DNA of 52,642 bases from Candidatus Kapaibacterium sp. (GTDB lineage Bacteria; Bacteroidota; Ignavibacteria; Palsa-1295), in assembly GCA_038229915.1 (NCBI GenBank), contig JBBRNY010000004.1, positions 1-52,642 on the forward strand, in the 5' to 3' direction. The translations under genes and the position numbers were made by a program. The notes beneath the pieces were generated by a model, which saw only the letters and a program-made list of their open reading frames with translations, was not told the origin of the DNA and made no database searches. Numbering within the stretch: position 1 is the first letter of the stretch; each line of letters opens with the position of its first letter. This document shows, piece after piece, positions 19,696 through 34,470 of this stretch.

Positions 19696-20259
19696 ATGGA
19701 TCTTTTTGCAACGTTTTTTAAGATCGGACTCACCCATATCGTTGAAGGTTACGATCATCTGCTCTTTCTTCTTGCGCTGATCATCGTCACGAAGGAAACA
19801 AAAGCCTTGCTCTCGGTCATTTCTGCATTTACTATTGCCCATTCGACCACTCTTATTCTGAGCGCACTTGGTATTATTAGTCTGCCTCCTGAGCTTACCG
19901 AATCACTGATCGCCCTTTCGATTGTCTATGTTGCCTTAGAGAATATTATCCGCCCCGATCCCAAAGGCCGTTGGATCGTTGCCGGTAGTTTTGGCCTCAT
20001 ACACGGAGCCGGGTTTTCGGGGCACTTGACAGACATTCTCAAAGGTATGCTACAAGGCGGAAACATTTGGTATCCGCTCATCGGATTTAATGTCGGTATC
20101 GAAGCCGGTCAGCTGATCGTGATCGCCATCACGCTCCCCTTACTTGCACTGGTGCGGAAATATAATAAAGAAGAAGTATTTGTGCACGAGATCTCGAGGG
20201 TCATTGCCGCCGTCGGAGCTGTTTTACTCGTTTGGCGAGCTTTTGGTATTAATTCTTAA
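19696..20259 (+). CDS. HupE/UreJ family membrane protein
   Basis: Motifs GLTHIVEGYDHLLFL, AFTIAHSTTL, ESLIALSI, FGLIHGAGF and FNVGIEAGQ. Confidence 0.92.
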   Translation: MDLFATFFKIGLTHIVEGYDHLLFLLALIIVTKETKALLSVISAFTIAHSTTLILSALGIISLPPELTESLIALSIVYVALENIIRPDPKGRWIVAGSFGLIHGAGFSGHLTDILKGMLQGGNIWYPLIGFNVGIEAGQLIVIAITLPLLALVRKYNKEEVFVHEISRVIAAVGAVLLVWRAFGINS

Positions 20260-21109
20260 ATAAGAGCTTATCGGTCACTTTCATCGCATCAACGGTTTCT
20301 TTTACGTCGTGCGTCCGAATGATCTTTGCTCCATTGAGCGCCCCCCATACAGCCCCTGCGAGGCTCCCAGCGAGCCGTTCGGAAGGAGGGGCATCACCCA
20401 GTATCCTACCAATAGTCGATTTACGAGAGATACCCAAAACCATCGGCACCCCCAGCTTTTCGAAACGACGATGATGCTTCAGTAAACTAATATTATCCTC
20501 AGCTCCTTTTGCAAAACCAAAGCCAATATCAGCAAGGACAACGCTCACTCCGGCTTCGCGAGCCAACTCGATCCGCTTTCGTAGCCAAGTAAAAATATTA
20601 TTGACCACATCGTCATACTGATACTCATCAATTGAAGTTCTCTCGAATTGCGGCCCATAGCCGTGCATAAGGATTATTGGCGAATCCTGCTTTCGTGCAA
20701 CTTCGAACATTGCTGCATCAGCAGTTGCGCCACTCACATCATTGATAATACTTGCGCCCAACGAAAGAGCTTCCTCAGCAACTTCCGCGCGAAAGGTATC
20801 GATCGAAATGATCGCTTCGGGATGCTGATTGACAATACCTGTAATTACCGGCGCAACACGCGCCAATTCTTCTTCGGGACAAATAAGCTCAGCACCTGTT
20901 CCATAATTATTGCCCGCTGGTCTGGTCGATTGACCGCCGATGTCTATAATATCCGCTCCTTCGGAGATCATCTGTGATGCTCGGTTGATCGCAGCGGTCG
21001 TATCGAGGTACTGCCCGCCATCAGAAAATGAGTCAGGGGTAACATTCAGCACTCCCATCACGAGGGTATGCGATGCGGCGAGGAGATTCAAAAATTGTTC
21101 GTTTGGCAT
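20249..21109 (-). CDS. folP: Dihydropteroate synthase
   Basis: Motifs MGVLNVTPDSFSDGG, IDIGGQSTRP, INDVSG, DIGFGFAK, GISRKS and RTHDV. Confidence 0.97.
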   Translation of the reverse strand: MPNEQFLNLLAASHTLVMGVLNVTPDSFSDGGQYLDTTAAINRASQMISEGADIIDIGGQSTRPAGNNYGTGAELICPEEELARVAPVITGIVNQHPEAIISIDTFRAEVAEEALSLGASIINDVSGATADAAMFEVARKQDSPIILMHGYGPQFERTSIDEYQYDDVVNNIFTWLRKRIELAREAGVSVVLADIGFGFAKGAEDNISLLKHHRRFEKLGVPMVLGISRKSTIGRILGDAPPSERLAGSLAGAVWGALNGAKIIRTHDVKETVDAMKVTDKLLFKN

Positions 21110-21143
21110 AAAAGAAAAACGACGACATCGCTGTCGCCGTCTT
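21110..21143 (-). terminator. Intrinsic terminator of the small basic ORF, abutting the folP start
   Basis: Minus strand reads AAGACGGCGACA-gcga-TGTCGTCGTTTT-TCTTTT, immediately followed by the folP ATG. Confidence 0.7.
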
Positions 21144-21171
21144 AATGAAACACAAGTTCAAAAAGTGATCG

Positions 21172-21291
21172 TTAGGCTTTCTTGGCGCTACGACTGCTTT
21201 TGGCGGCAGCCTTGGCGACTTTGATCTTTGCTTTGATCTTTTCTACTTTCTTTTTATGCTTCTGCTTAGCGACTTTACCTTTTTTGTTCAT
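21172..21291 (-). CDS. 39-aa Lys/Ala-rich basic small protein (not in the ORF track)
   Basis: Manual translation gives MNKKGKVAKQKHKKKVEKIKAKIKVAKAAAKSSRSAKKA*. It has an upstream TAAATTTG -7 element and its own terminator. Confidence 0.75.
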   Translation of the reverse strand: MNKKGKVAKQKHKKKVEKIKAKIKVAKAAAKSSRSAKKA

Positions 21292-21314
21292 AGATATAAT
21301 TAAGATATAATATA

Positions 21315-21322
21315 CAAATTTA
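21315..21322 (-). promoter_or_regulatory. -7 promoter element (TAnnTTTG) for the small basic ORF
   Basis: TAAATTTG on minus, 23 nt upstream of the ATG. No clear -33 TTTG. Confidence 0.5.
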
Positions 21323-21329
21323 CGACATT

Positions 21330-21992
21330 CTAGTGGGCATTCCCTTTATTCCAGTTTGGGATGTATCCGTCGTTGCGGATCAGATCATTGATCAACTCAA
21401 TATCTCGCACCCTTGGCAAGAGATCAATCAGATGTTTTTTCAGTACTTCGAGCCGCTGATTCTCGCTTTTTACGAGCAGGAGCGTCTGTCGTTGTTCAGG
21501 CGAAAGCCCTGATTTCTGGGCTACAGCAAACGATGGTTGCATCGGTTCGGACTTCATCATTGATGCGTCGATCATCTCAACGGTGCCTTTGTAGGCGACC
21601 TCACAAAGCTCATTAAAGAGCCCGATCACCTCGATTGCCAGTTCTTCGTCACGAACTTCTGGGTCGTCGTCGATCCACTGAATTTGTGCATACGAAAGCT
21701 CGTTTGGCTCGCCTTGCTCAAACTTGACGACTTCGTATCGCCGAACCCCTTCGGTCACAATATCGAGCTTCCCATCAGGATAGCGTTTAGTGACTTCTGC
21801 AATTCGTGCCGCACAGCCAACCGAGTGCATATTTTGATCTTCGATAAAATTTATACCGAAGATCCCTTTTTGCTTCAGCACATTGAGACACAACTTTTTG
21901 TAGCGGTCCTCAAAGATATGCAGAGGGATACGCGAAGCCGGAAACAGCACGACGCCAAGTGGGAACACCGGTATGCGTTCAATTTCGCTCAT
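21330..21992 (-). CDS. Stand-alone Lon protease substrate-binding (Lon-N) domain protein
   Basis: Motifs IPVFPLGVVLFP...PLHIFEDRY, VGC.A.I and GVRRYEV; no AAA+ or protease domain. Start moved to 21992. Confidence 0.9.
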   Translation of the reverse strand: MSEIERIPVFPLGVVLFPASRIPLHIFEDRYKKLCLNVLKQKGIFGINFIEDQNMHSVGCAARIAEVTKRYPDGKLDIVTEGVRRYEVVKFEQGEPNELSYAQIQWIDDDPEVRDEELAIEVIGLFNELCEVAYKGTVEMIDASMMKSEPMQPSFAVAQKSGLSPEQRQTLLLVKSENQRLEVLKKHLIDLLPRVRDIELINDLIRNDGYIPNWNKGNAH

Positions 21993-21994
21993 TC

Positions 21995-22201
21995 CTATTG
22001 TTGTTCTTCCTGCCAAAGTTCATACCAAGCCATTTGTACCGCCTCAAGCTTTGCCTCGTTCGAGAGATGAATATCATCTTCCCAGTCCGCCAACGCCGCA
22101 ATCCAATCACGAAGATCGGTATATCGTACCGACAACGGATCAACCCCAGGCTTAGCAAGTTGTAAGGCTTCGGCTATATCTTCAATGTCTTTCCAGAACA
22201 T
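21995..22201 (-). CDS. iscX: Fe-S cluster assembly protein IscX (YfhJ)
   Basis: W.D..DIAEAL, DPLSVRYTDL..W and SNEAKLEAVQMAW; lies after fdx. Confidence 0.95.
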   Translation of the reverse strand: MFWKDIEDIAEALQLAKPGVDPLSVRYTDLRDWIAALADWEDDIHLSNEAKLEAVQMAWYELWQEEQQ

Positions 22202-22221
22202 AATAATTGTTGAATTAAGAA

Positions 22222-22563
22222 TTATGCCCCTGTTGCACCTTCGTGGAACAAATGGGCGATCGAAGCATTTAATTGTGGGATCTGCACGACAAGATCAACA
22301 TCTTCGGTCAAGCGTGACTGACATCCAAGACGCGAATCAAGGGTCAGCCCTTCGGCTTCGTCGAGCTGATCCGCTTCGTCGTCAAGCTGTTCGGTCAAGG
22401 CATTCATCCCTTGTGTGACGATCACATGGCAGGTCGAGCATGCGCAGACACCGCCGCAATTGTGTTGTAAGTCAATGCCATTAGCGAGCGCAACGTCCAA
22501 GACGCTATCGCCAATAAGTGCTTCGCACGTAATGTGCATTGGTTCGAAAGTGATCGTAGCCAC
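22222..22563 (-). CDS. fdx: ISC-type [2Fe-2S] ferredoxin
   Basis: HNCGGVCACSTCHV and SRLGCQ. Confidence 0.95.
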   Translation of the reverse strand: MATITFEPMHITCEALIGDSVLDVALANGIDLQHNCGGVCACSTCHVIVTQGMNALTEQLDDEADQLDEAEGLTLDSRLGCQSRLTEDVDLVVQIPQLNASIAHLFHEGATGA

Positions 22564-22591
22564 AAGGGATAATTAAGAATGAAAGATAGTA

Positions 22592-23224
22592 TTATCGAGC
22601 AGCGAATTTTTTGTAGCGATCATTCACTCTGCCCCAATGAATATCAGCAATAAAGTTATCAATATAAGCGGCGCGCTTCGGTCCGTCTTTATGGTAGTAT
22701 GCATGTTCGAAGACATCACAAGCAACAAGCGGCACCGCACCCCAGACAGCACCGTAGTGATGCTCATCGACAAGGACGTTGCGAAGCTGACCTGAGCCGA
22801 GTTGATCGACGATCAACACTCCCCAACCAGAAAGTTTTGCAGAAACAGCGCAGGCTTTAAAGTCAGCTTTCCAGGCATCAACCGTTCCGAAATCACGCTC
22901 GATCATTGACAGAACATCTGGTGCTTTTGATGTGTCACCATCACCACCAAGATTTTCCCAATAAAGATCGTGAAGCACGTTGCCACCATGATTCCAAGTC
23001 CAACGGCGTTTCAGCTCACCATAAATCGAATAATTACCATTGGCCTTAGCAGCATCAGCAGTTTCAAGCGCTTTTTCGATCTCGTTTAACTTATCGACAT
23101 ATCCCTTGTGATGTGCATTGTAATGCCAATCGCTCGTTTCGGCATCAACAACTTTCGCAAGAAGAGTTTTTGCTTCTTCGTTTGAATACGGACGGGGTTT
23201 GAGTTTGTAATCGTATGCTTTCAT
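22592..23224 (-). CDS. Fe/Mn superoxide dismutase family protein (divergent, Aquifex-like)
   Basis: Metal-ligand motifs HYNAHHKGYV, NHGGNVLHDLYW and DVFEHAYY; also SGWG and IHWGRVNDRY. Confidence 0.9.
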   Translation of the reverse strand: MKAYDYKLKPRPYSNEEAKTLLAKVVDAETSDWHYNAHHKGYVDKLNEIEKALETADAAKANGNYSIYGELKRRWTWNHGGNVLHDLYWENLGGDGDTSKAPDVLSMIERDFGTVDAWKADFKACAVSAKLSGWGVLIVDQLGSGQLRNVLVDEHHYGAVWGAVPLVACDVFEHAYYHKDGPKRAAYIDNFIADIHWGRVNDRYKKFAAR

Positions 23225-23239
23225 ATTCGTTATTGATAG

Positions 23240-25126
23240 TTACGCATGTTCAATAGCCTTGCCACTCAAAGCCTGAGAAACAGATGCGTTTAAGATCTCA
23301 TGAGCCATCGGCTCGGTTCGCTGTTCGAGGGTCTCGGTCAGCGCCAAAATTTCTTTTGCGTCATCAGTGGAAATTGCTTTTCGCAAAGCATAGAGAGAGT
23401 CAATGATCTGATCGATCTTTAACGCTCCGAGCGATTCTTTTGAAAGAATGATCGTACCACGACGAATGTCGCCTAATACTTTTTCGGTTGCATTGGCAAC
23501 GCGCTCACCTTCGGTTTTTGCTTCGCCGAGTCTTCGAGCGGCTATATCTTCTTTTGCATGAATAATACTTTCACGAAGCATACGCTCGATCTCCTCGTCG
23601 GTCAGACCATACGAAGGTTTTACTTCGATCTGCTGAGCAATGCCGGTATGGGTTTCGAGCGCACTTACGTGCAAAATACCATCGGCATCGATCATAAACG
23701 TCACTTCCACTTTCGCAGCACCCGCCGGAAGCGGAGGAATGCCTTTGAGTGTGAATGATGCAAGGTGGCGGTTGTCTTGCACAAGGTCGCGCTCGCCTTG
23801 AAAAACATTGATCTCTACACCGGTTTGATTGTCGGCAAAAGTCGTATAAGCTTCTTTTGCTGTCGTCGGGATGGTTGTGTTACGAGAAATGATCGTACTC
23901 ATCATCGATCCGATCGTTTCGATACCAAGCGAAAGCGGCGTCACATCAAGTAGTAATATCTCTGACATCCCCCCCGAAAGAACATTTGCCTGTATCGCAG
24001 CACCAAGTGCAACCGTTTCGTCCGGATTGAGTGAGTCATGGGGCTTCCTCCCGAAAAGCTCTTGCACCAACTGCTTCACCATTGGCATTCGTGTTGAGCC
24101 GCCGACAAGAACAACTTCGTCAATTCCACTTGCTTTGATATGAGCATCAGCAAGTGCATCGATACAAGGTTGCTTTGTTTTGTCAAGTATTGGGCGAGCC
24201 ATCATTTCAAGTTCGCCGCGAGAAACGTTACGTTTATAATTTATAGATAATCGTGGAAGTTGGAGATCAACTGTGACATTTTGTGCGTCGCTCAAAGCGA
24301 TCTTTGCGCGCTCGGCTTCTTGGCGTATTTGCTGAAGCTCTTCGGGAGTTGGGGTAAAACTTGGCTCGATCCGTTGCAATTGCGAAATAAACAACTCCAT
24401 CAAACGACGATCAATGTCATCGCCACCAAGATATGTATCACCGTTAGTCGAAAGAACTTCGAAAATTCCGTTGGTGAGTTTTAAGATCGAAACATCAAAG
24501 GTACCACCACCAAAATCATAGATCGCGATGATCCCGTTCTTCTTTTTATCAAGCCCATAAGCCAGTGCAGCCGCTGTTGGCTCGTTAACAATACGCAACA
24601 CATCAAGCCCAGCAAGGCGTCCGGCGTCTTTGGTAGCTTGGCGTTGCGAGTCATTAAAATAGGCTGGCACGGTGATAACAGCTTTGGAAACCGGTTCGCC
24701 AAAATATTTTTCGGCACGTTCTTTCAGCTCTTTCAGAACAAATGATGAAAGTTCGATCGGGGTATATTCACGATTCCCAATTCCGACACGAACCAGACCC
24801 TCGTCGCGAGGCACCAATTTGTACGAGAGCATCCCTGATTCTTTTTTTACATCAGAAAAGGATTTGCCCATTAATCGCTTCACTGAGTACACCGTATGTC
24901 CTGCATCAATAAGTGCACGACGCTTTGCCGGAGTACCGACAGCCATCACTGCGCCATCGTCATCTAATGTAACGACTGAAGGCACAAGTCCACCATCGCG
25001 ACCCGGAATCACTTTCGCTTCGCCTGCTTCGACGTATGCAACAAGAGAATTTGTTGTACCAAGATCTATCCCGACGACTTTGCCGCCTGTTTGTTCTTGC
25101 CCTGGTAATGAAATTTGTAGTGGCAC
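23240..25126 (-). CDS. hscA: Fe-S protein assembly chaperone HscA
   Basis: Hsp70 motifs ([21 protein letters not shown]) plus HscA-type N-terminal [15 protein letters not shown] and VKPSYGL; ISC context. Confidence 0.93.
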
Positions 25127-25135
25127 TAAAAAAAA

Positions 25136-25720
25136 TTAATATAGTTCTGGAAATAATTTACGCTCGGTGCATTCGATAGCGATGTGAATTACTTTGATAT
25201 GTAATTCTTGGATACGGTCGGTGGTCTTGCCGGGCGCGATGATCGCAACGTCGCAAAGCTCTTTCATCTTACCACCATCTTTACCAAGTAAGCCGACAAC
25301 TTTCATACCTTTGTTACGAGCCGTCTCTGCTGCAAGTAGAATGTTTTTACTATTACCTGAAGTCGTGATCCCAACAAATACATCTCCGGATTCACCAAAA
25401 GCTTCGACCATTCTCTGAAAGACAAATTCAAAACCATAGTCATTGGATGTACAGCTCATGTGTGACGGATCGGCGAAGGCAATAGCCGGAAGAGGCTTGC
25501 GATCCTTGCGATAGCGCCCTGTCCATTCCTCAGCAAAGTGCATTGCATCACAATGGCTTCCGCCGTTACCGGCACTATAGACTTTTTTGCCAGTCGTGAA
25601 TGCCGTTTCGAGAATGTTTACGAACTCGTTGATCTTCCCAAGCGACTCATCGCTCGAAAGGAATTCGTGAACTGCATGTTCTGCTTCGAGCAGTGATGCT
25701 TTGATGTGTTGGATACTCAC
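25136..25720 (-). CDS. gmhA: D-sedoheptulose-7-phosphate isomerase
   Basis: GNGGSHCDAMHFAEE.TGRYR, SC.SNDYG, TSGNSKN and DRIQELHIKVIH match E. coli-type GmhA. Confidence 0.92.
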   Translation of the reverse strand: MSIQHIKASLLEAEHAVHEFLSSDESLGKINEFVNILETAFTTGKKVYSAGNGGSHCDAMHFAEEWTGRYRKDRKPLPAIAFADPSHMSCTSNDYGFEFVFQRMVEAFGESGDVFVGITTSGNSKNILLAAETARNKGMKVVGLLGKDGGKMKELCDVAIIAPGKTTDRIQELHIKVIHIAIECTERKLFPELY

Positions 25721-25725
25721 AATTT

Positions 25726-26310
25726 TTAATGTCTTATGATGAGTGTCTTGCCTTCTTTTGCGGCGACAAGGGTTTCGTATAACGTTTGCAAGTACGATCT
25801 GGTGGCAAGAGAACGCGTCAGTGCTTCAAGAATCCTCTTCTCATCCGGGCTTTGCTCACTACCCGGAACACTATGCTCAGGAATGCTATCCCACTCATTT
25901 CTCATTGCGTCGATCTCTGACTTATGCGAAGCTATTCTAGCACTCAGATCTTGTTCGATGCTCAAGAGTTCACCGCCAAGTTTTGCACCGCTCTGCATCT
26001 GCTCGACAAATTCCTGCACATTCATTACCAACTCCAACAGATCCATCGGCACTTGCTTCGATCGCTCGACCGAATAGCCATAAATGGATAGCAAATATTT
26101 TGCCCGTGACATTGGCTCGCGAAGAATACGGTATGCTTGATTAATGAGGCTCGATTGCTCGAGCGATTCGGCAACAGCAACTTCCCCTTTTGTTGCTGAT
26201 CTATCGGGATGGTAACGACGCTGTAATTCGTGAAAACGCCGCTCAAGTTGAGCGGCGTCTTCGTCACGAAATTTGTGAGATATACCTAATGTGGTGAAAT
26301 GATCGTTCAC
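25726..26310 (-). CDS. hscB: Fe-S co-chaperone HscB
   Basis: J-domain with YHPDR, SSLINQAY.IL.EP..RAKYLL and LELVM. Start moved to the GTG at 26310 to remove the iscA overlap. Confidence 0.92.
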   Translation of the reverse strand: MNDHFTTLGISHKFRDEDAAQLERRFHELQRRYHPDRSATKGEVAVAESLEQSSLINQAYRILREPMSRAKYLLSIYGYSVERSKQVPMDLLELVMNVQEFVEQMQSGAKLGGELLSIEQDLSARIASHKSEIDAMRNEWDSIPEHSVPGSEQSPDEKRILEALTRSLATRSYLQTLYETLVAAKEGKTLIIRH

Positions 26311-26348
26311 AGTTGTTTTTTCCCTGCTGAGAGGGAAATTAATGGCTC

Positions 26349-26768
26349 TTAAACTCCGAATGAACTTCCGCAACCACAAGTCTTCGAGGCGTTCGGATTG
26401 TTGAACACGAATCCTCGACCGTTGAGACCATCGGTAAAATCAAGCTGTGTACCTGAAAGATAGAACAGCGACTTCGGGTCGATAAATAATTGAACGCCAT
26501 CGATCTTCAAGGTTTTATCACCTTCACGAGGTTCTTTATCAAAACCGAGTGAATATGAAAGTCCCGAGCAGCCGCCGCCCTTTACACCGACACGGAGACC
26601 ATACGTATCCGGGATGTTATTGGCCGCCATAATTTTGGCTACTTCGAGACGAGCTTTCTCGCTCAGCGAGATCTCTTCTTCGATATTCTCGAACGCTTTT
26701 TCGACAGTCGTCTCTTCAAGAGACGGCATCGCTACTACTTCTTGCTCCATCGTTTCCATAATATTCAT
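26349..26768 (-). CDS. iscA: A-type Fe-S carrier IscA/HesB
   Basis: LRVGVKGGGCSGLSY and NPNASKTCGCGSSF; acidic N-terminal extension. Confidence 0.93.
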   Translation of the reverse strand: MNIMETMEQEVVAMPSLEETTVEKAFENIEEEISLSEKARLEVAKIMAANNIPDTYGLRVGVKGGGCSGLSYSLGFDKEPREGDKTLKIDGVQLFIDPKSLFYLSGTQLDFTDGLNGRGFVFNNPNASKTCGCGSSFGV

Positions 26769-26779
26769 TCTTTCTAAAT

Positions 26780-27181
26780 TTATGCGTTAGCAGCATGCAA
26801 CACGGCTTGCTTCTTTTTGTAATCTTCGAGCGCAGCCTTGATCGCGTCCTCGGCAAGTACCGAGCAGTGGATCTTGACCGGCGGAAGATTCAACTCCGAA
26901 ACGATCGTCGTGTTTTTGATCGACAAAGCTTCTTCAACCGATTTGCCTTTGATGAGTTCTGTTGCAAAAGAGCTTGAAGCGATCGCCGAACCACAGCCGA
27001 ACGTTTTAAACTTCGCATCTTCGATGATACCATCATCGCTGATCTTGATCTGCAAGCGCATGACGTCGCCGCACTCTGGTGCGCCGACTAACCCTGTACC
27101 TACGGTTGGATCATTTGGGTCCATTGTTCCCACATTACGAGGATGTGAGTAGTGATCCATTACTTTTTCTGAGTATGCCAT
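26780..27181 (-). CDS. iscU: Fe-S scaffold IscU
   Basis: Motifs GAPECGDVM, FKTFGCGSAIASSS and LPPVKIHCS. Confidence 0.98.
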   Translation of the reverse strand: MAYSEKVMDHYSHPRNVGTMDPNDPTVGTGLVGAPECGDVMRLQIKISDDGIIEDAKFKTFGCGSAIASSSFATELIKGKSVEEALSIKNTTIVSELNLPPVKIHCSVLAEDAIKAALEDYKKKQAVLHAANA

Positions 27182-27239
27182 TATTTGTTTTTCCTTACAA
27201 TAAAATTATACGTATCGCTAATACAATAGATTCAGCGAT

Positions 27240-27731
27240 CTATTTCTTGAGCCACGGTGGCGGTGCCTTCGCACCGGCAGGCGTTGCTCCTGCGGTTGCA
27301 GGTGCGGCCGTTGGTGCTATTGCCGCTGCTACAGGTGTCGGCGCTGCTGCTGCGGCGGGTTTAGCCGCTGCAGGTGCCGGTGCTGCCGCGACTCGTGCTG
27401 GTGGCATTGCGTCGGGTGTTACACCTTGAAATGCCGCGATCGTGCCGCCTTCTTTTGGCGTCGAAAGCTCAGGGTAATTCAAAATATATCCTTGAGGGTT
27501 CACACGCTTAAAAATTCCTGTTTGTTCATACGAACGAGCAACGTCTTTGGCGATCGTCTCTGCCTTTTCGTTGCCGATCGTTATGCCCTGCTTATCTTCA
27601 TAATATTCTTGGATCGAAAACTGCAGATCACGAAAGAATATGTTCGAATTATGAAATACCGGTTTATGTATTTCACGCATATAGCTCAAGAGCTCATATG
27701 GGTACTCGATAAAGATATCTGCCTGTGTCAT
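27240..27731 (-). CDS. Uncharacterised protein within the isc operon; ~95-aa domain plus Ala/Pro-rich tail
   Basis: Lies between iscS and iscU on the same strand. Core FHNSNIFFRDLQF...LNYPEL, then an AP-rich linker ending PPPWLKK. Start moved to the ATG at 27731. Confidence 0.8.
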   Translation of the reverse strand: MTQADIFIEYPYELLSYMREIHKPVFHNSNIFFRDLQFSIQEYYEDKQGITIGNEKAETIAKDVARSYEQTGIFKRVNPQGYILNYPELSTPKEGGTIAAFQGVTPDAMPPARVAAAPAPAAAKPAAAAAPTPVAAAIAPTAAPATAGATPAGAKAPPPWLKK

Positions 27732-27755
27732 ATAGTAGATCAAATGTGTATCTTA

Positions 27756-27763
27756 CAAAAATA
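27756..27763 (-). promoter_or_regulatory. Possible internal -7 promoter element
   Basis: cgTATTTTTG on minus in the gap between iscS and the unknown gene. Confidence 0.45.
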
Positions 27764-27799
27764 CGACTCTTCTGAGTTCACCGATCGAATACGGATTCG

Positions 27800-29032
27800 T
27801 TAGTGATGTGCCCATTCGATCGTTTTGAGATCGACACCCATTTTCGCCAACTCATAGAGCGGCGACATATCACGAAGATGCTCGACCGCACCGATCAATT
27901 GCTTCTCGGTATAATCAATTTCTTCAGGTGTCGTAAAACGTCCCATACCGAAACGAAGCGACGTATGAGCTAAGTCTTCGCCAACGCCGAGGGCTTTCAA
28001 AACATAGCTTGGTTCGAGTGTCGCCGTAGTACAAGCAGAGCCTGAACTGACAGCAATATCTTTAATACCCATCATCAATGACTCGCCTTCGACAAATGCG
28101 AAGCTAACGTTGAGGTTGCCCGGCAAGCGTCTGTTTGCATCGTTGATCGGGTCAGGTCCGTTAATATAGACTTCATCGAGTGCGCTGGTGATCTTATTCC
28201 AAAGTGAATCACGCAGTCCTTGTATGCGCGGCACTTCGATTGGCATTTCAGTAACGCAAAGCTCAATAGCTTTTGCCAAGCCGACGATACCAGGTACGTT
28301 CAATGTACCCGAACGCATACCACGCTCGTGACCACCGCCATCCATTTGGGATGCAAGCTTTACACGTGGATTTTTCTTACGAACATAGAGCGCACCAACA
28401 CCCTTCGGTCCATAAACCTTATGGCCGGAGAATGATGCAAGATCGACGTTCATTTTAATGACATCAAACGGTACTTTCCCTACCGATTGGGTGGCATCGG
28501 TATGGAAGATCACGCCTTTGTCATGACAAATTTTTCCGATCGCTTCGATATCTTGTATCGTACCTACTTCGTTGTTGACGTGCATCAACGACACAAGGAT
28601 CGTTTTATCGGTAATCGCATCACGAAGCTGATCGTGATCGACAAACCCTTCTTTATCTACCGGCAAATACGTTACGCGGTAGCCTTTGCGCTCAAGTGCT
28701 TTGCAAGTATCAAGCACCGCTTTATGCTCGGTGGTCGCCGTGATGATATGATCGCCTTTCGACGCGTACATTTCGGCGATGCCTTTGATAGCCAAATTAT
28801 CTGACTCGGTTGCACCACTGGTGAAGACGATCTCCTTTTCATCTGCACCAATATATTTTGCGATCGTCGCACGACCCCAATCAACACCTTCCTCAGCCTT
28901 CCATCCGAAAGGATGGTTGCGACTGGCGGCATTTCCATAATACTCGGTAAAGTATGGCATCATTGCCTCCAATACTCGAGGGTCGAGCTTGGTGGTTGCA
29001 TTATTGTCTAAATAGATCGGCAGCTTCAACAT
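27800..29032 (-). CDS. iscS: Cysteine desulfurase IscS
   Basis: Motifs [37 protein letters not shown] and the IscS tail MSPLYE...IEWAHH. Confidence 0.98.
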
Positions 29033-29053
29033 ATATTTTCCTGTAATAAACTT

Positions 29054-29455
29054 TTAGAGCAATTCCGAGATCGTCATATTCCCAACCGACTCGGTAAGTC
29101 TCACCTGTAATTTTTGCATCGGCACCTTGATCGTGCAAGAATCAAACATTGCGCAAGTCTCATGGTCGGGGTTTTCCGTAGCACACTCGGTGATCGCGGT
29201 TTCTTCATCAAGCGAAGAAACGACGCGGTTCAGCGTGATCTGTTCCGGCGACAAGAGCAGTCTATACCCTCCGCGAACTCCTTGAAAAGAATCAATGATG
29301 CCATCACGCTTCATTGATTGCATTACTTTCGCAAGTAAGTCGTGCGGGATGTTTGACGAATCCGAAATCTCACGCGTAGTGGCTACCTGACCTGACTTCG
29401 CCAGATACTGTAATGCCATTAAACCATATTCTACACGTTTCGAGATTCTTAACAT
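29054..29455 (-). CDS. Rrf2-family Fe-S-sensing regulator (IscR-like position)
   Basis: wHTH with S.QG.RGGY.L; three Cys spaced C-x9-C-x5-C; first gene of the isc cluster. Confidence 0.9.
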   Translation of the reverse strand: MLRISKRVEYGLMALQYLAKSGQVATTREISDSSNIPHDLLAKVMQSMKRDGIIDSFQGVRGGYRLLLSPEQITLNRVVSSLDEETAITECATENPDHETCAMFDSCTIKVPMQKLQVRLTESVGNMTISELL

Positions 29456-29463
29456 TCTTTTTC

Positions 29464-29488
29464 AAATCGGACTAAATTAGTCCTATTT
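29464..29488. promoter_or_regulatory. 25-bp palindromic Rrf2/IscR-type operator
   Basis: AAATCGGACTAAATTAGTCCTATTT is a near-perfect palindrome. Its GACT-N5-AGTC core matches the IscR type-1 site, 8 nt upstream of the regulator ATG. Confidence 0.8.
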
Positions 29489-29772
29489 AACCCCCAAATA
29501 AAAGGCTCGGTTGATGGAGCCTTGCTTTGCGTATTGATTTAAACGTAAAATATGGGTTGGCGGTTTCGTTTATCTAAAAAATAATTGATGGTGAGGCGTT
29601 ATTATCAAAAATAAAACGGACTTCTAACTTTTGGAATGAGTGGATGGAGATTGATTTTTTCGAATTATTTACTTTTATTGCTTGGTTTCATAAGAGTATA
29701 AGTGCAAAACGAGCGTAAACGACACATATTGACCGAAGAATTTCTTTCACTGTAAATATTTTTCTCGAAGTA

Positions 29773-31125
29773 TTGATCTACCTTTTCTACATCTTTACTG
29801 GGTTGATTCTATCTGTGCTAGGATGGTACTATCGGTACCGTTTTATTTCATTCTGCAGGAATGAAACCACTGCAGATATGGGCTTTTTCGAGCTCGAAGG
29901 ATATTCCAATAAGCCTTCATACACTGCGGGGGAATCACTCGAACTCTTCGTGCACTCTACTTTCAAAGATACTTACTACTCGATAAGGTCAATGAATGGA
30001 GACAAAGAAATTCTTGCAAGTGATGATTCGACTATCGGCATTCAAGATCAAACACATTCTGATAATCAATCGGTGGAAGGATGTCATTGGAAACTCACAA
30101 AAAGAATAGACTTGCCGAAAGATATTATTCAAGGCTATTATCAGATCGTCATATCTTCAGATCAAGCGAAGAAAACATTCTCGATACCTTTTATTGTCTC
30201 ATCTGATACAAAAGCAAAGATCATTATTCTTGCTCCTGTTTCAACATGGAATTCATATAATTCGTGGGGCGGCAGATCGCTTTATCAGAATAAATATGAA
30301 AATAAAACGGTGTATAAAGCAAGCCTCTTACGCCCGAACACAGCATTTCAACTGAATCACTCTATTAAGACTGAAGCAAATATCACTGACTGGTTTGTAA
30401 ATAACTATGATTCAGTCGCTGTCTATCCTGACTTTTACCTTGAATCAAAACCTGAGTTATTCTCTGAGTGTGCGCTTATTATCTTGGCGTATCATTGTGA
30501 ATATGTGAGTAGATCAATGTATGACGAGCTTCAACATATTATCACAAAAGGAGCATCGATGATCTCGCTTGGTGCTAATCAACTGTATTGGGTGATACAA
30601 TGGAATGATGAGCATACCCAAATGGAATGCCGGAAGGATCTTACGATGTTCGACAACTCATTCAACTATGGAGGGCTTTGGAAACATCATTTCAGAAAAC
30701 AAGAAGCATTATGCGGTTCGAGATATACGGGTTCGGGAATGCACACATTCGCACCATACACCGTCACCAGCGCTGACCATTGGCTCTTCAATAATACAAA
30801 TGTCAAGAATGGAGATCTGTTCGGGGTGAATGGCATTTCGCAAAGGCCTATCTCCGGCGCCGAAACAGACAAGCATTCATCTGCGTCAAGTAGCATCGAG
30901 ATCGTCGCACATGGGTTGAATTGTGACAATGAATCACAAGGCACAATTTACAATAGTGACAGATCAATATGGAATGGCGAAGGTGGTGCGGATCTCTTAC
31001 TAAAAACTTTGCCAAATGGCAACGCCGTACTTTCAACAGGGTCTATCGAAAGCGGAGCAGGCTTGGGTTACGATGAAGTATTTACTGCTATAGTGAAAAA
31101 TTTTATTGAGCGTTATGTTGCTTAA
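29773..31125 (+). CDS. N,N-dimethylformamidase beta-subunit-like (DUF6605) protein with N-terminal TM anchor
   Basis: Motifs EGYS..PSY.AGE.L, STWNSYNSWGGRSLY, RP, HCEYVS, GAN.LYW and GAETD. Confidence 0.8.
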   Translation: MIYLFYIFTGLILSVLGWYYRYRFISFCRNETTADMGFFELEGYSNKPSYTAGESLELFVHSTFKDTYYSIRSMNGDKEILASDDSTIGIQDQTHSDNQSVEGCHWKLTKRIDLPKDIIQGYYQIVISSDQAKKTFSIPFIVSSDTKAKIIILAPVSTWNSYNSWGGRSLYQNKYENKTVYKASLLRPNTAFQLNHSIKTEANITDWFVNNYDSVAVYPDFYLESKPELFSECALIILAYHCEYVSRSMYDELQHIITKGASMISLGANQLYWVIQWNDEHTQMECRKDLTMFDNSFNYGGLWKHHFRKQEALCGSRYTGSGMHTFAPYTVTSADHWLFNNTNVKNGDLFGVNGISQRPISGAETDKHSSASSSIEIVAHGLNCDNESQGTIYNSDRSIWNGEGGADLLLKTLPNGNAVLSTGSIESGAGLGYDEVFTAIVKNFIERYVA

Positions 31126-32204
31126 GACAATGTCTTAATAGCATTCATTACCGTATCAATTTCAATATCTCTGATGCACATAAAGTGCTCATCCGGATCT
31201 ATTCTATAGCAAACAAGTGCTTTTGGAGAATAAATAAAACAGGGGCGACAGTCGATTCCGGTTTGCACAATTTCATATCTTGTCTTCCATGGATGAACGT
31301 AGGTCTCATTCGTGGGTCCAAAAATTGCTACTGTTGGCAATTGCAACGCTCCGGCAATATGCATGAGCGCCGAATCATTTGACACAAAAAGAGTAGTGCG
31401 CTTCATAATGGCGATCGAGTCCATAATTGATTTCGTACGCACTTCTATGACAGCATCTCCGGCGATCCGAATGATCATTTCATTGGCTTCGGTATCATCA
31501 GGGCCGCCAAAAAGCAAAACAACTGCCCCACTTTCCTTCTTTAATCTTTTCGCAAGACCGGCAAATTTTTCCGGAGCCCAGCGGCGCTTGATATGATTTT
31601 TGAACAGCGCTGTACCGGCATGAAAGCCAATGATCTGAGGTGCACCTTCAAGATGATGCTCACGAATCCAGTTGTCAGCAAAGTCGATATTACTTTGACT
31701 GAGGTGTAGTTCAAGTCTCGGGAGCGAATCTTCGTGCAATTGTGGCTTTATTCCAAGCAATGAAATGAGGTGGACGTTTTCTTCCACACAATGCAGCGCA
31801 TCATTCTCTGCGACGGTGTCAGAATTGAGCCAATTCAGATTTTGCCAATCGCGACGTTTATATCGCACACCAAGTCTTTTTGCAGCCCCAAGTAGGAGTG
31901 CAAAAATATTATATTCTCTTCTATTCTGCGGATAAATATTTATCGAAACATCAAATGCAAGCCCCCTCAAATGCAAGAGGAATAGCAACCCCTCAAAGGT
32001 GTTACTATGAATAAAATCAAAATAGTGAACAGTATTGACTAACGGATTTGAACGAAAAAGATCTCGAGTTGCGGCGAACATCACCAGCACATGAATATCT
32101 GCCTCCGGCTTTGCTTCACGAAGCAAGCGAAGCATTGGTGTAGCCAACAGTGCATCGCCAATTCCCGGCAATGCGATGATCAGGATCTTCTCAGGCTTGC
32201 TCAC
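31122..32204 (-). CDS. Glycosyltransferase family 9 (heptosyltransferase-like)
   Basis: Motifs GIGDALLATP, KRRWAPEKF, SNDSALMHIAGA and AIFGPT. Start moved to the GTG at 32204. Confidence 0.92.
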   Translation of the reverse strand: MSKPEKILIIALPGIGDALLATPMLRLLREAKPEADIHVLVMFAATRDLFRSNPLVNTVHYFDFIHSNTFEGLLFLLHLRGLAFDVSINIYPQNRREYNIFALLLGAAKRLGVRYKRRDWQNLNWLNSDTVAENDALHCVEENVHLISLLGIKPQLHEDSLPRLELHLSQSNIDFADNWIREHHLEGAPQIIGFHAGTALFKNHIKRRWAPEKFAGLAKRLKKESGAVVLLFGGPDDTEANEMIIRIAGDAVIEVRTKSIMDSIAIMKRTTLFVSNDSALMHIAGALQLPTVAIFGPTNETYVHPWKTRYEIVQTGIDCRPCFIYSPKALVCYRIDPDEHFMCIRDIEIDTVMNAIKTLS

Positions 32205-34470
32205 GCTTTTTTGGAAGACTGAAGAACACCAACCCCAAAACCGTGGCGCCGAGCGTGATAAGACTAATGAGCGAACCAGTGTGAAATGCCGACGACTCAT
32301 ATTTCAAAACAACCGTATGCTCACCTTTAGGAATTTCTACTGCACGAAGCGCAGTGAATGCACGGTAAAGTTTTGTCTCTTTGCCATCAATATAGGCATG
32401 CCACGCTGGGTAATAGATCTCTGAAAAGAATAACATTCCATTCTCTGAAGTTTTTACCTTCGTTTCTATTTCATCGGTTTCGTAGCGTGAGACAGTCGCG
32501 ACAGAAGCAGCGTCAACATTCGTCAGTTGAAGTGACGGTTGTTCTTCGAGCAGCATTACATTCCTAAAATCAAATGACGAGTCAGTTCGCAGTAATGTCT
32601 TCGCCTCTTCATCAGGCTTGACAACTGTCTTGTAATACATCTTTACTCTTGGCAAGTATGAAGAACGCTGACCAAAACCTGTGCCATTAGAATTGGTCAT
32701 AATTGACCATTTAATATTTAACAGATCGGCGGTGATCTCGGGATTAGTGCATTGTGGCGCATTCCGTTGCAACACCAATGGATTGTATCCTTCAAGCAAC
32801 TGGATCCTATCGTATGCACCTTGATTACGTTTCAAGAGCATTCCATTCGCGCCACGAATTCTCGCACGCGAAAGTTCTTTCGATTGATCTTGTTTCAGCA
32901 TATCAACAAGCTGTGGTTGCTCCCGAAATGCCTGGCGCGGGTCTAGGGTTGTGGCGTTCAGTCCTGAGCCATAGGTAAATAATTCGATCATCGTGATAGC
33001 GATCGCGGCGGTCGCTAATCCAATACCATTGATCTTTTTGAAGGCTATCAACAATCCGATGACGAGGGTCGCAAGCACAGGAAACGCGGCTAAGCTTGTA
33101 GCCCAAGAAATTGCCTCGGCCGCTTCAGGCGGCGCACTAGCCATAAACGACTGCGGAGAAAACATTTTCATCACTCCCATTATCCACACAAGCGTTACGA
33201 CACCTAATATACCATAGAGCGCTTTTTTAGTTGACTCCGATATTCCATTCTTTAGAATGGTCGCAAGCCCAACGCCTCCGAGTGCAGTCATTGAAAACGA
33301 AAAGATCATCATCATTCTCGCAGGCGTGCGAAGTTTGTCGAATAGCGGCAGAGAAAAGAATATTTTATATAATGGGAAGTGATCGCCAAGGGCGAATAAC
33401 AACGCGAAGACACTCATCACAGCAAAGAACGATACATACTTCTTTTTCCAACTTCCGAAAGCGGCAACCACAGCCAGTACCAAAGGCATAATGCCGATAT
33501 AACACATCGTCTCCCACGACAAATAAAAAGCACCGTTCCAATATGGTACTTTTGCTTCACGCATTGCGTCGGTTACACCAAAAAGTCGGGGTAGTATCAG
33601 TGTTAGTAGATGCCCGAATGTCAGCGAGCCTTCGACTGAGTTTTGGAATGTGATCGTATCACGGCGTGAAAGCGAAGCAAGTTCTTGCGCTGGTAAGAAC
33701 TGTATAGCAAATATTCCGACAGCGATCACCACCGGAACAAGCATTCTTATAACAACGAACGCATTTACAACCCTATCTTCTTTATTTCGTAAGCGATAGA
33801 CCAATTCATACACGGCAAGTAGCGCTAAAAAGAAAGTGAGGAACAGAGTTGTTTGTGGATGTCCGGCAAGGTACATTACCCCGAGCAAGAGACCCGCTCC
33901 GAGCGAGTACTTCCAGGAATCGGTGCCTTTTAAAAAGAGCAGTACTACCCATGGAAATATCGCTAATTGATAGACGATCATTTGATGCATCGTCTGCCCG
34001 GTCATAAAGCCGCATAATGAGAAAGCAATAGCCGCAAGCATAGCCGACCATTCATCGGTCTTAAAAATAGTACGAACCAACAAATACATTCCGACCGCAG
34101 CAACCAAATAATGCAAGACGATAAACCATTGCATCACGATAGGCGAAAGATGCCCGTCGGAGACAAATAACGCCTGCACCATATTCATCGGATACCAAAA
34201 CGCAACCTGAATATCCGCCATAAATGGCATACCGCAAAACACATAAGGATTCCAGCCCGGCAGATGCCCAGAGGCGAGACTACTGGTAGCAAGTGTCCTA
34301 AACGGGAATTCCTGTTCGACAAAATCTTCCCAAAGAAATTTTCCGCCAAAGAGCAACGGATAGTAAAAAATAACAACGACGACGGCAAGTATCGCAATGA
34401 CCACGCCAAGTGAGAGGCGCGGCAATGGTGATGCCGGTAAAGACTTTGATGGTGATGACGTTTTTGCCAT
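32191..34470 (-). CDS. YfhO family (GT-C fold) membrane protein
   Basis: Motifs PGWNPYVFCGMPFMAD, LAGHPQ, LRTPAR and FSEIYYPAWHAYIDG...GEHTV; many TM segments. Confidence 0.9.
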   Translation of the reverse strand: MAKTSSPSKSLPASPLPRLSLGVVIAILAVVVVIFYYPLLFGGKFLWEDFVEQEFPFRTLATSSLASGHLPGWNPYVFCGMPFMADIQVAFWYPMNMVQALFVSDGHLSPIVMQWFIVLHYLVAAVGMYLLVRTIFKTDEWSAMLAAIAFSLCGFMTGQTMHQMIVYQLAIFPWVVLLFLKGTDSWKYSLGAGLLLGVMYLAGHPQTTLFLTFFLALLAVYELVYRLRNKEDRVVNAFVVIRMLVPVVIAVGIFAIQFLPAQELASLSRRDTITFQNSVEGSLTFGHLLTLILPRLFGVTDAMREAKVPYWNGAFYLSWETMCYIGIMPLVLAVVAAFGSWKKKYVSFFAVMSVFALLFALGDHFPLYKIFFSLPLFDKLRTPARMMMIFSFSMTALGGVGLATILKNGISESTKKALYGILGVVTLVWIMGVMKMFSPQSFMASAPPEAAEAISWATSLAAFPVLATLVIGLLIAFKKINGIGLATAAIAITMIELFTYGSGLNATTLDPRQAFREQPQLVDMLKQDQSKELSRARIRGANGMLLKRNQGAYDRIQLLEGYNPLVLQRNAPQCTNPEITADLLNIKWSIMTNSNGTGFGQRSSYLPRVKMYYKTVVKPDEEAKTLLRTDSSFDFRNVMLLEEQPSLQLTNVDAASVATVSRYETDEIETKVKTSENGMLFFSEIYYPAWHAYIDGKETKLYRAFTALRAVEIPKGEHTVVLKYESSAFHTGSLISLITLGATVLGLVFFSLPKKREQA

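Follow-up and report, generated by a model that had tools for sequence, protein, structure and literature searches.

Contig JBBRNY010000004.1 of Candidatus Kapaibacterium sp. (assembly GCA_038229915.1) was analysed over a stretch of 52,642 nucleotides, hereafter the window, in which twelve co-directional genes on the minus strand (29455-21330) probably constitute a single housekeeping operon for the assembly of iron-sulfur (Fe-S) clusters. In this reading, an ISC-type assembly core lies within an older frame of genes found across the lineage, and the genes that do not belong to the canonical ISC set are kept in related genomes. According to the open reading frame (ORF) list, Pfam and NCBIfam, the genes run in the order Rrf2 - IscS - a 167-amino-acid protein without a Pfam or NCBIfam family - IscU - IscA - HscB - GmhA - HscA - Fe/Mn superoxide dismutase (SOD) - ferredoxin (Fdx) - IscX - a protein made up of a Lon N-terminal domain only (LonN). 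Fe-S cluster biogenesis is usually described from Escherichia coli, in which ISC serves for housekeeping and SUF for stress. Most bacteria rely on a single Fe-S system, usually SUF, and the canonical order of the isc operon is iscRSUA-hscBA-fdx-iscX (PMC11559095).

This canonical order is not present uninterrupted in the window, since four genes, those for the 167-residue protein, GmhA, SOD and LonN, are inserted. IscS, IscU, HscB, HscA, IscX and GmhA all score above the cut-offs of curated NCBIfam equivalog models. A preliminary description of this DNA had proposed a complete ISC operon with four non-canonical genes, headed by a palindrome; the assignments bear this out, including all twelve genes, their order and their strand, and the palindrome can be read in the sequence at 29469-29483. 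The genes are tightly packed, with all intergenic gaps at or below 58 nt when starts are chosen from relatives; gmhA, for example, is flanked by 5 nt on the hscB side and 9 nt on the hscA side. A gap of 220 nt then separates the LonN gene from folP, and within it lies a terminator-like hairpin with a T-run (21116-21143, minus strand; 12 pairs), the strongest in our scan and likely the end of the operon, although terminator-like sites as a class were not above shuffled sequence (12 found vs 9.9 expected). A sigma-70 promoter scan gave 12 sites against 14.3 expected, with Bacteroidota-type promoters lying outside its model.

The ISC core starts with IscS (27800-29032), a type I cysteine desulfurase scoring 657.4 bits against a cut-off of 548 (NF010611), with E. 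coli IscS (544 bits) as the closest match among solved structures. The scaffold IscU (26780-27181; TIGR01999, 223.3 bits vs 192.4) has the LPPVK chaperone site in its translation. It is followed by an A-type carrier of IscA/ErpA-like kind (26349-26768; TIGR00049, 117 bits vs 59), which is under the cut-off of the IscA equivalog model (TIGR02011, 95.5 vs 150.6). The co-chaperone HscB (25726-26379; TIGR00714, 62.2 bits vs 46.75) likely starts near 26310, as relatives align from residue 24, and the ISC-type Hsp70 HscA (23240-25126) passes two models (TIGR01991, 709.9 vs 708.55; NF003520, 722.1 vs 620). The 2Fe-2S ferredoxin (22222-22563; PF00111 (Fer2), 47 bits vs 21) has TIGR02007 (fdx_isc) as its best match, under the cut-off (98.7 vs 132.1), and IscX (21995-22201; TIGR03412, 74.4 bits vs 40.4) completes the set.

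This appears to be the only Fe-S assembly system of the organism. SufB was not found in its genome (98.66% complete), while the control genomes all gave a match. We extended the search to 61 genomes, namely this one and 60 relatives, 35 of them from the same family (own genome included) and 26 from other families. SufB was found in none of the 35 same-family genomes, compared with 23 of the 26 others; the check for suf that the preliminary description had called for thus found none in the own genome or in the 34 others of the family. HscB exceeded its cut-off in 32 of the 35, the misses being G014 (70% complete) and G026 and G029 (scores under the cut-off). Of the three genomes from other families in which SufB was not found, two (G045 and G059) passed the HscB cut-off, and no other genome outside the family did. 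SufB and HscB never occur together in the 61 genomes; ISC and SUF are mutually exclusive in the genomes searched. G041, of the same class and 97% complete, gave no match to SufB, HscB or the 167-residue protein. In an even sample of the phylum (301 genomes, own genome included), HscB was above cut-off in 18, which makes ISC an uncommon system with a patchy distribution in the phylum.

To see how the additional genes are placed in relatives, we compared 80 loci taken around relatives of the 167-residue protein and, separately, 20 regions from relatives, with some genomes in both sets. The loci are labelled Candidatus Kapaibacterium, Ignavibacteria, Ignavibacteriales, Bacteroidota and Chlorobiota metagenome-assembled genomes, with a few others. 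In 20 of the 22 loci with both hscB and hscA, gmhA lies between them (exceptions L104 and L117). Of the 19 loci with both hscA and fdx, 14 have SOD between them (the others being L052, L056, L060, L062 and L064), and LonN comes next after iscX in all 19 loci with IscX. The same order extends over nine genera of the family, with protein identities down to 35-80%. The extras are thus present in the isc loci of close relatives, and the earlier suggestion of a lineage-specific variant agrees with the neighbourhoods of the 80 loci.

The same comparison shows that several of these genes are not restricted to ISC loci. Upstream of the gene for the 167-residue protein, the neighbour is IscS-like in 58 of the 80 loci, Rrf2 in 9, and something else or a contig end in 13; downstream, the nearest neighbour among the query genes is IscA (40), IscU (25), SufS (8) or SOD (5). 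The eight loci with SufS have a gap of about 4 kb after the gene, which in L091 is filled by SufB, SufC and SufD (Pfam). The full order there is Rrf2 - desulfurase - 167-residue protein - SufB - SufC - SufD - SufS - SufU - SufT-like - IscA - SOD - LonN - FolP. Across the 80 loci, SOD is present in 64, IscA in 73 and LonN in 40; among the 16 loci without SOD, eight are cut by a contig end, five are ISC loci and three are others. A frame of Rrf2, desulfurase, 167-residue protein, IscA, SOD and LonN is hence common to Kapaibacteria and Ignavibacteria, holding SufBCD-SufSU in some loci and IscU/HscBA/Fdx/IscX in others. The frame genes occur in loci of both the SUF and the ISC type, and only the core differs. 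In our reading, one assembly core has apparently been swapped for the other, in either direction, while the locus around it was conserved. The 167-residue protein, SOD and LonN would then be part of an older Fe-S frame that also flanks SUF, rather than additions to an ISC operon, and the accessory genes would predate the ISC core at the locus. Our preliminary description had called the operon mosaic, which is the right word, but in the other sense that these three genes seem to belong to the older frame. We found no paper that places sod, gmhA, LonN or the family of the 167-residue protein inside isc or suf loci of Ignavibacteria or Kapabacteria, in a literature search that did not extend to subscription journals and supplements.

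At the head of the operon, the Rrf2-family regulator (29054-29455; PF02082, 98 bits) contains three cysteines (C91, C101, C107), which are kept in 46 of 46 sequences (the window and 45 loci). A perfect palindrome, GGACTAA-T-TTAGTCC (core GGACT-N5-AGTCC; 29469-29483), is located 13 nt before its ATG and is the predicted operator. When the 120 nt preceding Rrf2 were compared over 45 related loci, all 45 had this inverted repeat in a loose form (2.65 expected from shuffles) and 19 of the 45 had it in a strict form (0.0 expected); the sequence around it is not conserved among these upstream regions. In the whole draft genome, the pattern matches only here and at one weaker site (contig C39, C39:5912). 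About 6 kb from the latter, a second IscS/NifS-like desulfurase, 40% identical, is encoded at 11725-12822 of contig C39 (minus strand). The Rrf2 protein would be a cluster-sensing local autoregulator that binds the predicted operator. Directly upstream of the operator is a further hairpin with a T-run (29502-29523, minus strand), which is kept in genus-level relatives although the upstream gene is divergent. An Rfam scan of 20000-30000 returned three matches, all far below gathering scores, and none explains this hairpin.

The SOD (22592-23224) passes the cut-offs of both Pfam domains, Sod_Fe_N (55.9 bits) and Sod_Fe_C (82.5 bits), and is of the archaeal/Aquifex-like type; its best solved relative is 1coj. 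The metal ligands H34, H85, D170 and H174 are present in this predicted Fe/Mn enzyme, which is without a signal peptide. Searches of the genome for a second Fe/Mn SOD, a Cu/Zn SOD or a superoxide reductase found none. We aligned 64 SODs, from the window and 63 loci (L111 was dropped as it is cut by a contig end), and the four ligands are kept in 63 of these; the one exception, L102, is likewise truncated at a contig end. The slot is occupied by SODs of three sequence types, namely the archaeal/Aquifex-like type of the window (29), the canonical Mn/Fe type (32) and a third type (3). That different SODs occupy this position with their ligands kept argues for selection on the association itself.

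The LonN protein (21330-22016, 228 amino acids) matches LON_substr_bdg (PF02190) with 80 bits over residues 15-196, and its true start is likely the ATG at 21992. It has neither an AAA+ ATPase nor a Ser-Lys protease domain in Pfam, and no NCBIfam model matched it. It is the only LON_substr_bdg match in the assembly. Other stand-alone Lon N-domain proteins (solved as 7cay and as the fragment 3m65) have the same domain without ATPase or protease, although the match to solved Lon N domains is weak (E 5e-7). To our knowledge, no function is known for such stand-alone forms, and our literature search found no printed account of them in an Fe-S locus. A C-terminal fragment of a Lon protease lies at the edge of contig C109, so that a full Lon protease probably exists in this genome and is incompletely assembled.

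GmhA (25136-25720), a sedoheptulose-7-phosphate isomerase (TIGR00441, 215.7 vs 209.45), has a different history. It aligns over its full length to its best solved relatives, the GmhA proteins of Vibrio cholerae and E. coli, and is present in a single copy in the genome (one tblastn match). The HldE kinase domain and HldD are above their cut-offs elsewhere in the genome, so that, with gmhA, the organism has the heptose pathway. Of the 61 genomes, 59 gave a match to gmhA, and within the family its coordinates adjoin hscB; in G045 and G059, the ISC genomes outside the family, it is on another contig or more than 1 megabase away. Being class-wide and off-locus in these outside ISC genomes, gmhA appears to be native to the lineage and to have been relocated into the operon in the ancestor of the family. 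It is fairly likely to be a passenger there.

The 167-residue protein (27240-27743), which likely starts at the ATG at 27731, consists of an N-terminal domain of about 95 residues (with the motif FHNSNxFFRD), an Ala/Pro-rich linker and a C-terminal PPPWLKK. The AlphaFold model has pLDDT above 90 for residues 11-95, arranged as helix-strand-helix-helix-hairpin, and the rest is predicted to be disordered. An alignment of 54 sequences gives the family motif [FY]H[NK]SN[IV]FxRD with S33, N34, F36, R38 and D39 invariant; Q41 is also invariant in this alignment but variable in related sequences outside it. Foldseek gave no match in the PDB at E<=0.001, VIA-align returned generic and mixed winged-helix matches (Z up to 6.7), and no Pfam family matched at E<=0.001, with only scattered chance-level matches at E<=1. 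In the ESM Atlas, the only clusters are of 'hypothetical protein' entries with the label Ignavibacteriota. Searching 1.84 billion representatives with a profile yielded 188 proteins at E<=0.001 (68-289 amino acids), with the domain N-terminal in all but a few. The protein is a member of a new, small and taxonomically narrow family with a predicted winged-helix-like fold, and we refer to it below as the winged-helix protein. A diverged IscX was dropped as a candidate identity, given an hhalign probability of 0.15 against the family. Nor did we adopt a role as a frataxin substitute: frataxin/CyaY was not found in a search of the own genome, but no positive link was seen. A complex prediction of IscS with the winged-helix domain scored 0.00, amounting to no answer, and, run without controls, counts neither way.

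The tails of the family are diverse. In 117 listed sequences with the motif located, at least 25 residues follow the domain in 51, and fewer than 25 in 66. The 51 long tails comprise eight of LPP[LI]K type, five ending in PPW[LMA][KR]K, five with KLAELQAKM-like helical repeats and 33 with none of these. Seven of the eight LPP[LI]K tails carry 2-5 repeats (P0003, P0014, P0016, P0020, P0021, P0030 and P0035), and the PPWLKK tail is kept across the genera of the window's family. Only two ORFs in the own genome end in PPWLKK after an Ala/Pro-rich linker: the winged-helix protein and a b6-like cytochrome b (L131, 1428-2471, plus strand, contig C108), which is encoded in a cluster with a 4Fe-4S ferredoxin, a Rieske protein and a subunit IV-like protein. 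The tail also matched ORFs of about 350 residues (one of 265) in seven further same-family genomes.

In our preferred reading, the winged-helix protein would be an accessory factor of Fe-S assembly, and more probably a protein-binding adaptor than a DNA binder, with its disordered tail ending in what may be a docking-type peptide. It could instead be a second regulator or a partner of Rrf2 (co-repressor or anti-repressor), which we hold to be unlikely. The fold is winged-helix-like and many of its matches are DNA-binding regulators, in 9 of the 80 loci the gene comes immediately after Rrf2, and one family member (P0127, 217 amino acids) has an Rrf2-like N-terminal domain fused to the winged-helix domain. 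However, the helix that occupies the recognition position shows poor conservation and an acidic or neutral character, the invariant residues map to the first strand and to the beginning of helix 2, and the fold scores are generic (Z below 7). As for P0127, it is one Rrf2 fusion among 26 sequences read, and may be a true fusion or a read-through gene call. A more specific proposal, which strikes us as quite doubtful, is an adaptor that recruits or competes for Hsp70, its tail presenting IscU-like peptides (LPPLK, PPPWLKK) to HscA or DnaK. HscA recognises the LPPVK of IscU (PMC6506825), which the window's IscU also has, so that an Hsp70-docking role for the tails is conceivable, and both the LPPLK repeats and the persistence of PPWLKK would suit it. 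Yet LPPLK-repeat tails are found in a SUF-type lineage without HscB (L042/G035), most family members are tail-less, and PPPWLKK is only loosely like LPPVK. Going further, the winged-helix protein, SOD and LonN might together be an unrecognised accessory module serving SUF or ISC across Ignavibacteria and Kapaibacteria, with the winged-helix protein as an adaptor with an IscU-like Hsp70-docking tail, and the PPPWLKK on the Rieske-linked cytochrome b tying chaperone-assisted delivery to a membrane client; taken as a whole, this is improbable.

Other alternatives concern the locus as a whole. All four additional genes may be neutral passengers, their order being inherited and silent on function. 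This would fit gmhA, with its lack of any known link to Fe-S assembly and its off-locus position in ISC genomes outside the family, as well as the loss of SOD from 5 of 19 ISC loci without its position being refilled, and related genomes are not independent samples. We nevertheless regard it as unlikely for the set of four, given that the winged-helix gene, SOD and LonN remain associated with Fe-S genes in many families and with either assembly system, that the three SOD types in the slot are non-orthologous, and that the winged-helix family was found only in such loci, with at least one Fe-S gene alongside it in the 80 fetched loci, excepting two cut by contig ends. Far less probable is a recently transferred proteobacterial isc island that gathered local genes. 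The closeness of IscS and GmhA to E. coli and Vibrio proteins among solved structures points that way, as does the rarity of HscB in the phylum sample, but the shared order over nine genera at such low identities and the gmhA orthologues throughout the class speak against it. The G+C content is also even, at 0.44-0.47 over the operon and similar in its flanks, which contain housekeeping genes (TypA, MurA, MiaB, HU, BshB1, a heptosyltransferase and folP); no mobile-element genes were found in the flanks by Pfam annotation and the neighbour check. This even composition and these neighbours indicate that the operon is not a recent island. An old transfer of the ISC core is possible. The heptosyltransferase, of family 9 (31122-32300, minus strand), begins some 1.7 kb from the operon on its upstream side and recurs beside isc loci in relatives; a DMFA2_C-domain protein (29773-31125, plus strand) is encoded between it and the operon.

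Our preferred explanation, a housekeeping Fe-S operon with an ISC core inside an older frame, would work as follows. The Rrf2 repressor, through its three cysteines, would respond to Fe-S status and bind GGACT-N5-AGTCC beside its own start codon, thereby setting the transcription of all twelve genes. To judge from their family membership, IscS, IscU, IscA, HscB, HscA, Fdx and IscX would assemble and transfer clusters in the same way as their proteobacterial ISC counterparts. Around them, comparison shows a frame of Rrf2 - desulfurase - winged-helix protein ... A-type carrier - SOD - LonN - folP, which in Ignavibacteria holds SufBCD-SufS-SufU, the core presumably having been exchanged in the Kapaibacterial lineage. 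SOD, the only superoxide scavenger detected, would be produced alongside an assembly machinery whose intermediates and products are destroyed by superoxide. LonN would act as a substrate-binding module, and gmhA would most simply be a passenger, placed between hscB and hscA in the ancestor of the family, on an operon that is needed constitutively.

Several observations weigh against this explanation. We infer co-transcription and a response to iron or oxidants from the gene spacing and the operator alone, and the Rrf2 protein is under the cut-off of every IscR, SufR and NsrR equivalog model (for IscR, TIGR02010, 53.4 vs 207.55; NF008110, 40.1 vs 275). An RRxF, twin-arginine-like N-terminus occurs in 23 of the 32 canonical-type SODs in the slot, all in Ignavibacteria (L079, L094, L099, L107, L121, L122 and 17 more), and in none of the window-type SODs. 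These canonical-type SODs may be exported, which does not fit direct protection of a cytoplasmic assembly process. In five of the 19 ISC loci, hscA is followed straight by fdx, and the five genomes concerned (same family, 95-98% complete) include three without any Fe/Mn SOD and two with one elsewhere; SOD is dispensable for the window's type of ISC locus. For the winged-helix protein, any role is a guess, because it lacks both a conserved Cys or His-rich site and a structural relative of a specific kind.

These points also bear on the couplings to cluster assembly that the preliminary description had put forward. A functional coupling to superoxide removal is plausible, but it is not obligate, as the ISC loci and genomes lacking SOD demonstrate. 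Coupling to protein quality control found no support, since LonN is a substrate-binding domain on its own, without the ATPase or protease part. The suggested link to heptose supply likewise lacks support: gmhA is a class-wide housekeeping gene, off-locus in ISC genomes outside the family, and no mechanistic connection to Fe-S clusters is evident.

Compared with the iscRSUA-hscBA-fdx-iscX operons of E. coli and Pseudomonas aeruginosa, the window has the same core in the same relative order and an Rrf2-family autoregulator at its head. It differs from proteobacterial isc in the winged-helix gene after iscS, gmhA between hscB and hscA, sod between hscA and fdx, and LonN after iscX, and also in a regulator below the IscR cut-off and a genome in which CyaY/frataxin was not found. 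P. aeruginosa likewise has ISC as its sole system (PMC11559095). The SUF loci of Ignavibacteria (e.g. L091) share with the window Rrf2, a NifS/IscS-like desulfurase, the winged-helix protein, the A-type carrier, SOD, LonN, folP and the operator motif, but they hold a SufBCD-SufS-SufU-SufT-like core instead of IscU-HscBA-Fdx-IscX, and no gmhA. In E. coli, IscR controls sodA, so that Fe-S sensing is linked to SOD expression through a regulon, whereas in the window sod lies inside the operon itself. IscX (YfhJ) is a small, acidic, helical ISC accessory protein described as a modified winged helix; like the winged-helix protein it stands beside the ISC core in the window's operon, yet the two have no profile similarity.

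The locus is a lineage-specific variant of the ISC operon in which one accessory gene represents a new protein family, while the mechanisms by which the accessory genes may be coupled to cluster assembly are our inferences. What is new here is the association of the winged-helix protein, SOD and LonN with Rrf2, the desulfurase and IscA as a shared frame. A whole family appears to live on ISC alone, and the only SOD detected in the window's genome is in the same operon, which may be one answer to oxidants in an ISC-only organism. Sister lineages with the same frame around SUF offer a natural experiment on the exchange of assembly cores, and the winged-helix family and the LonN-only protein are candidate general Fe-S accessory factors that are directly testable.

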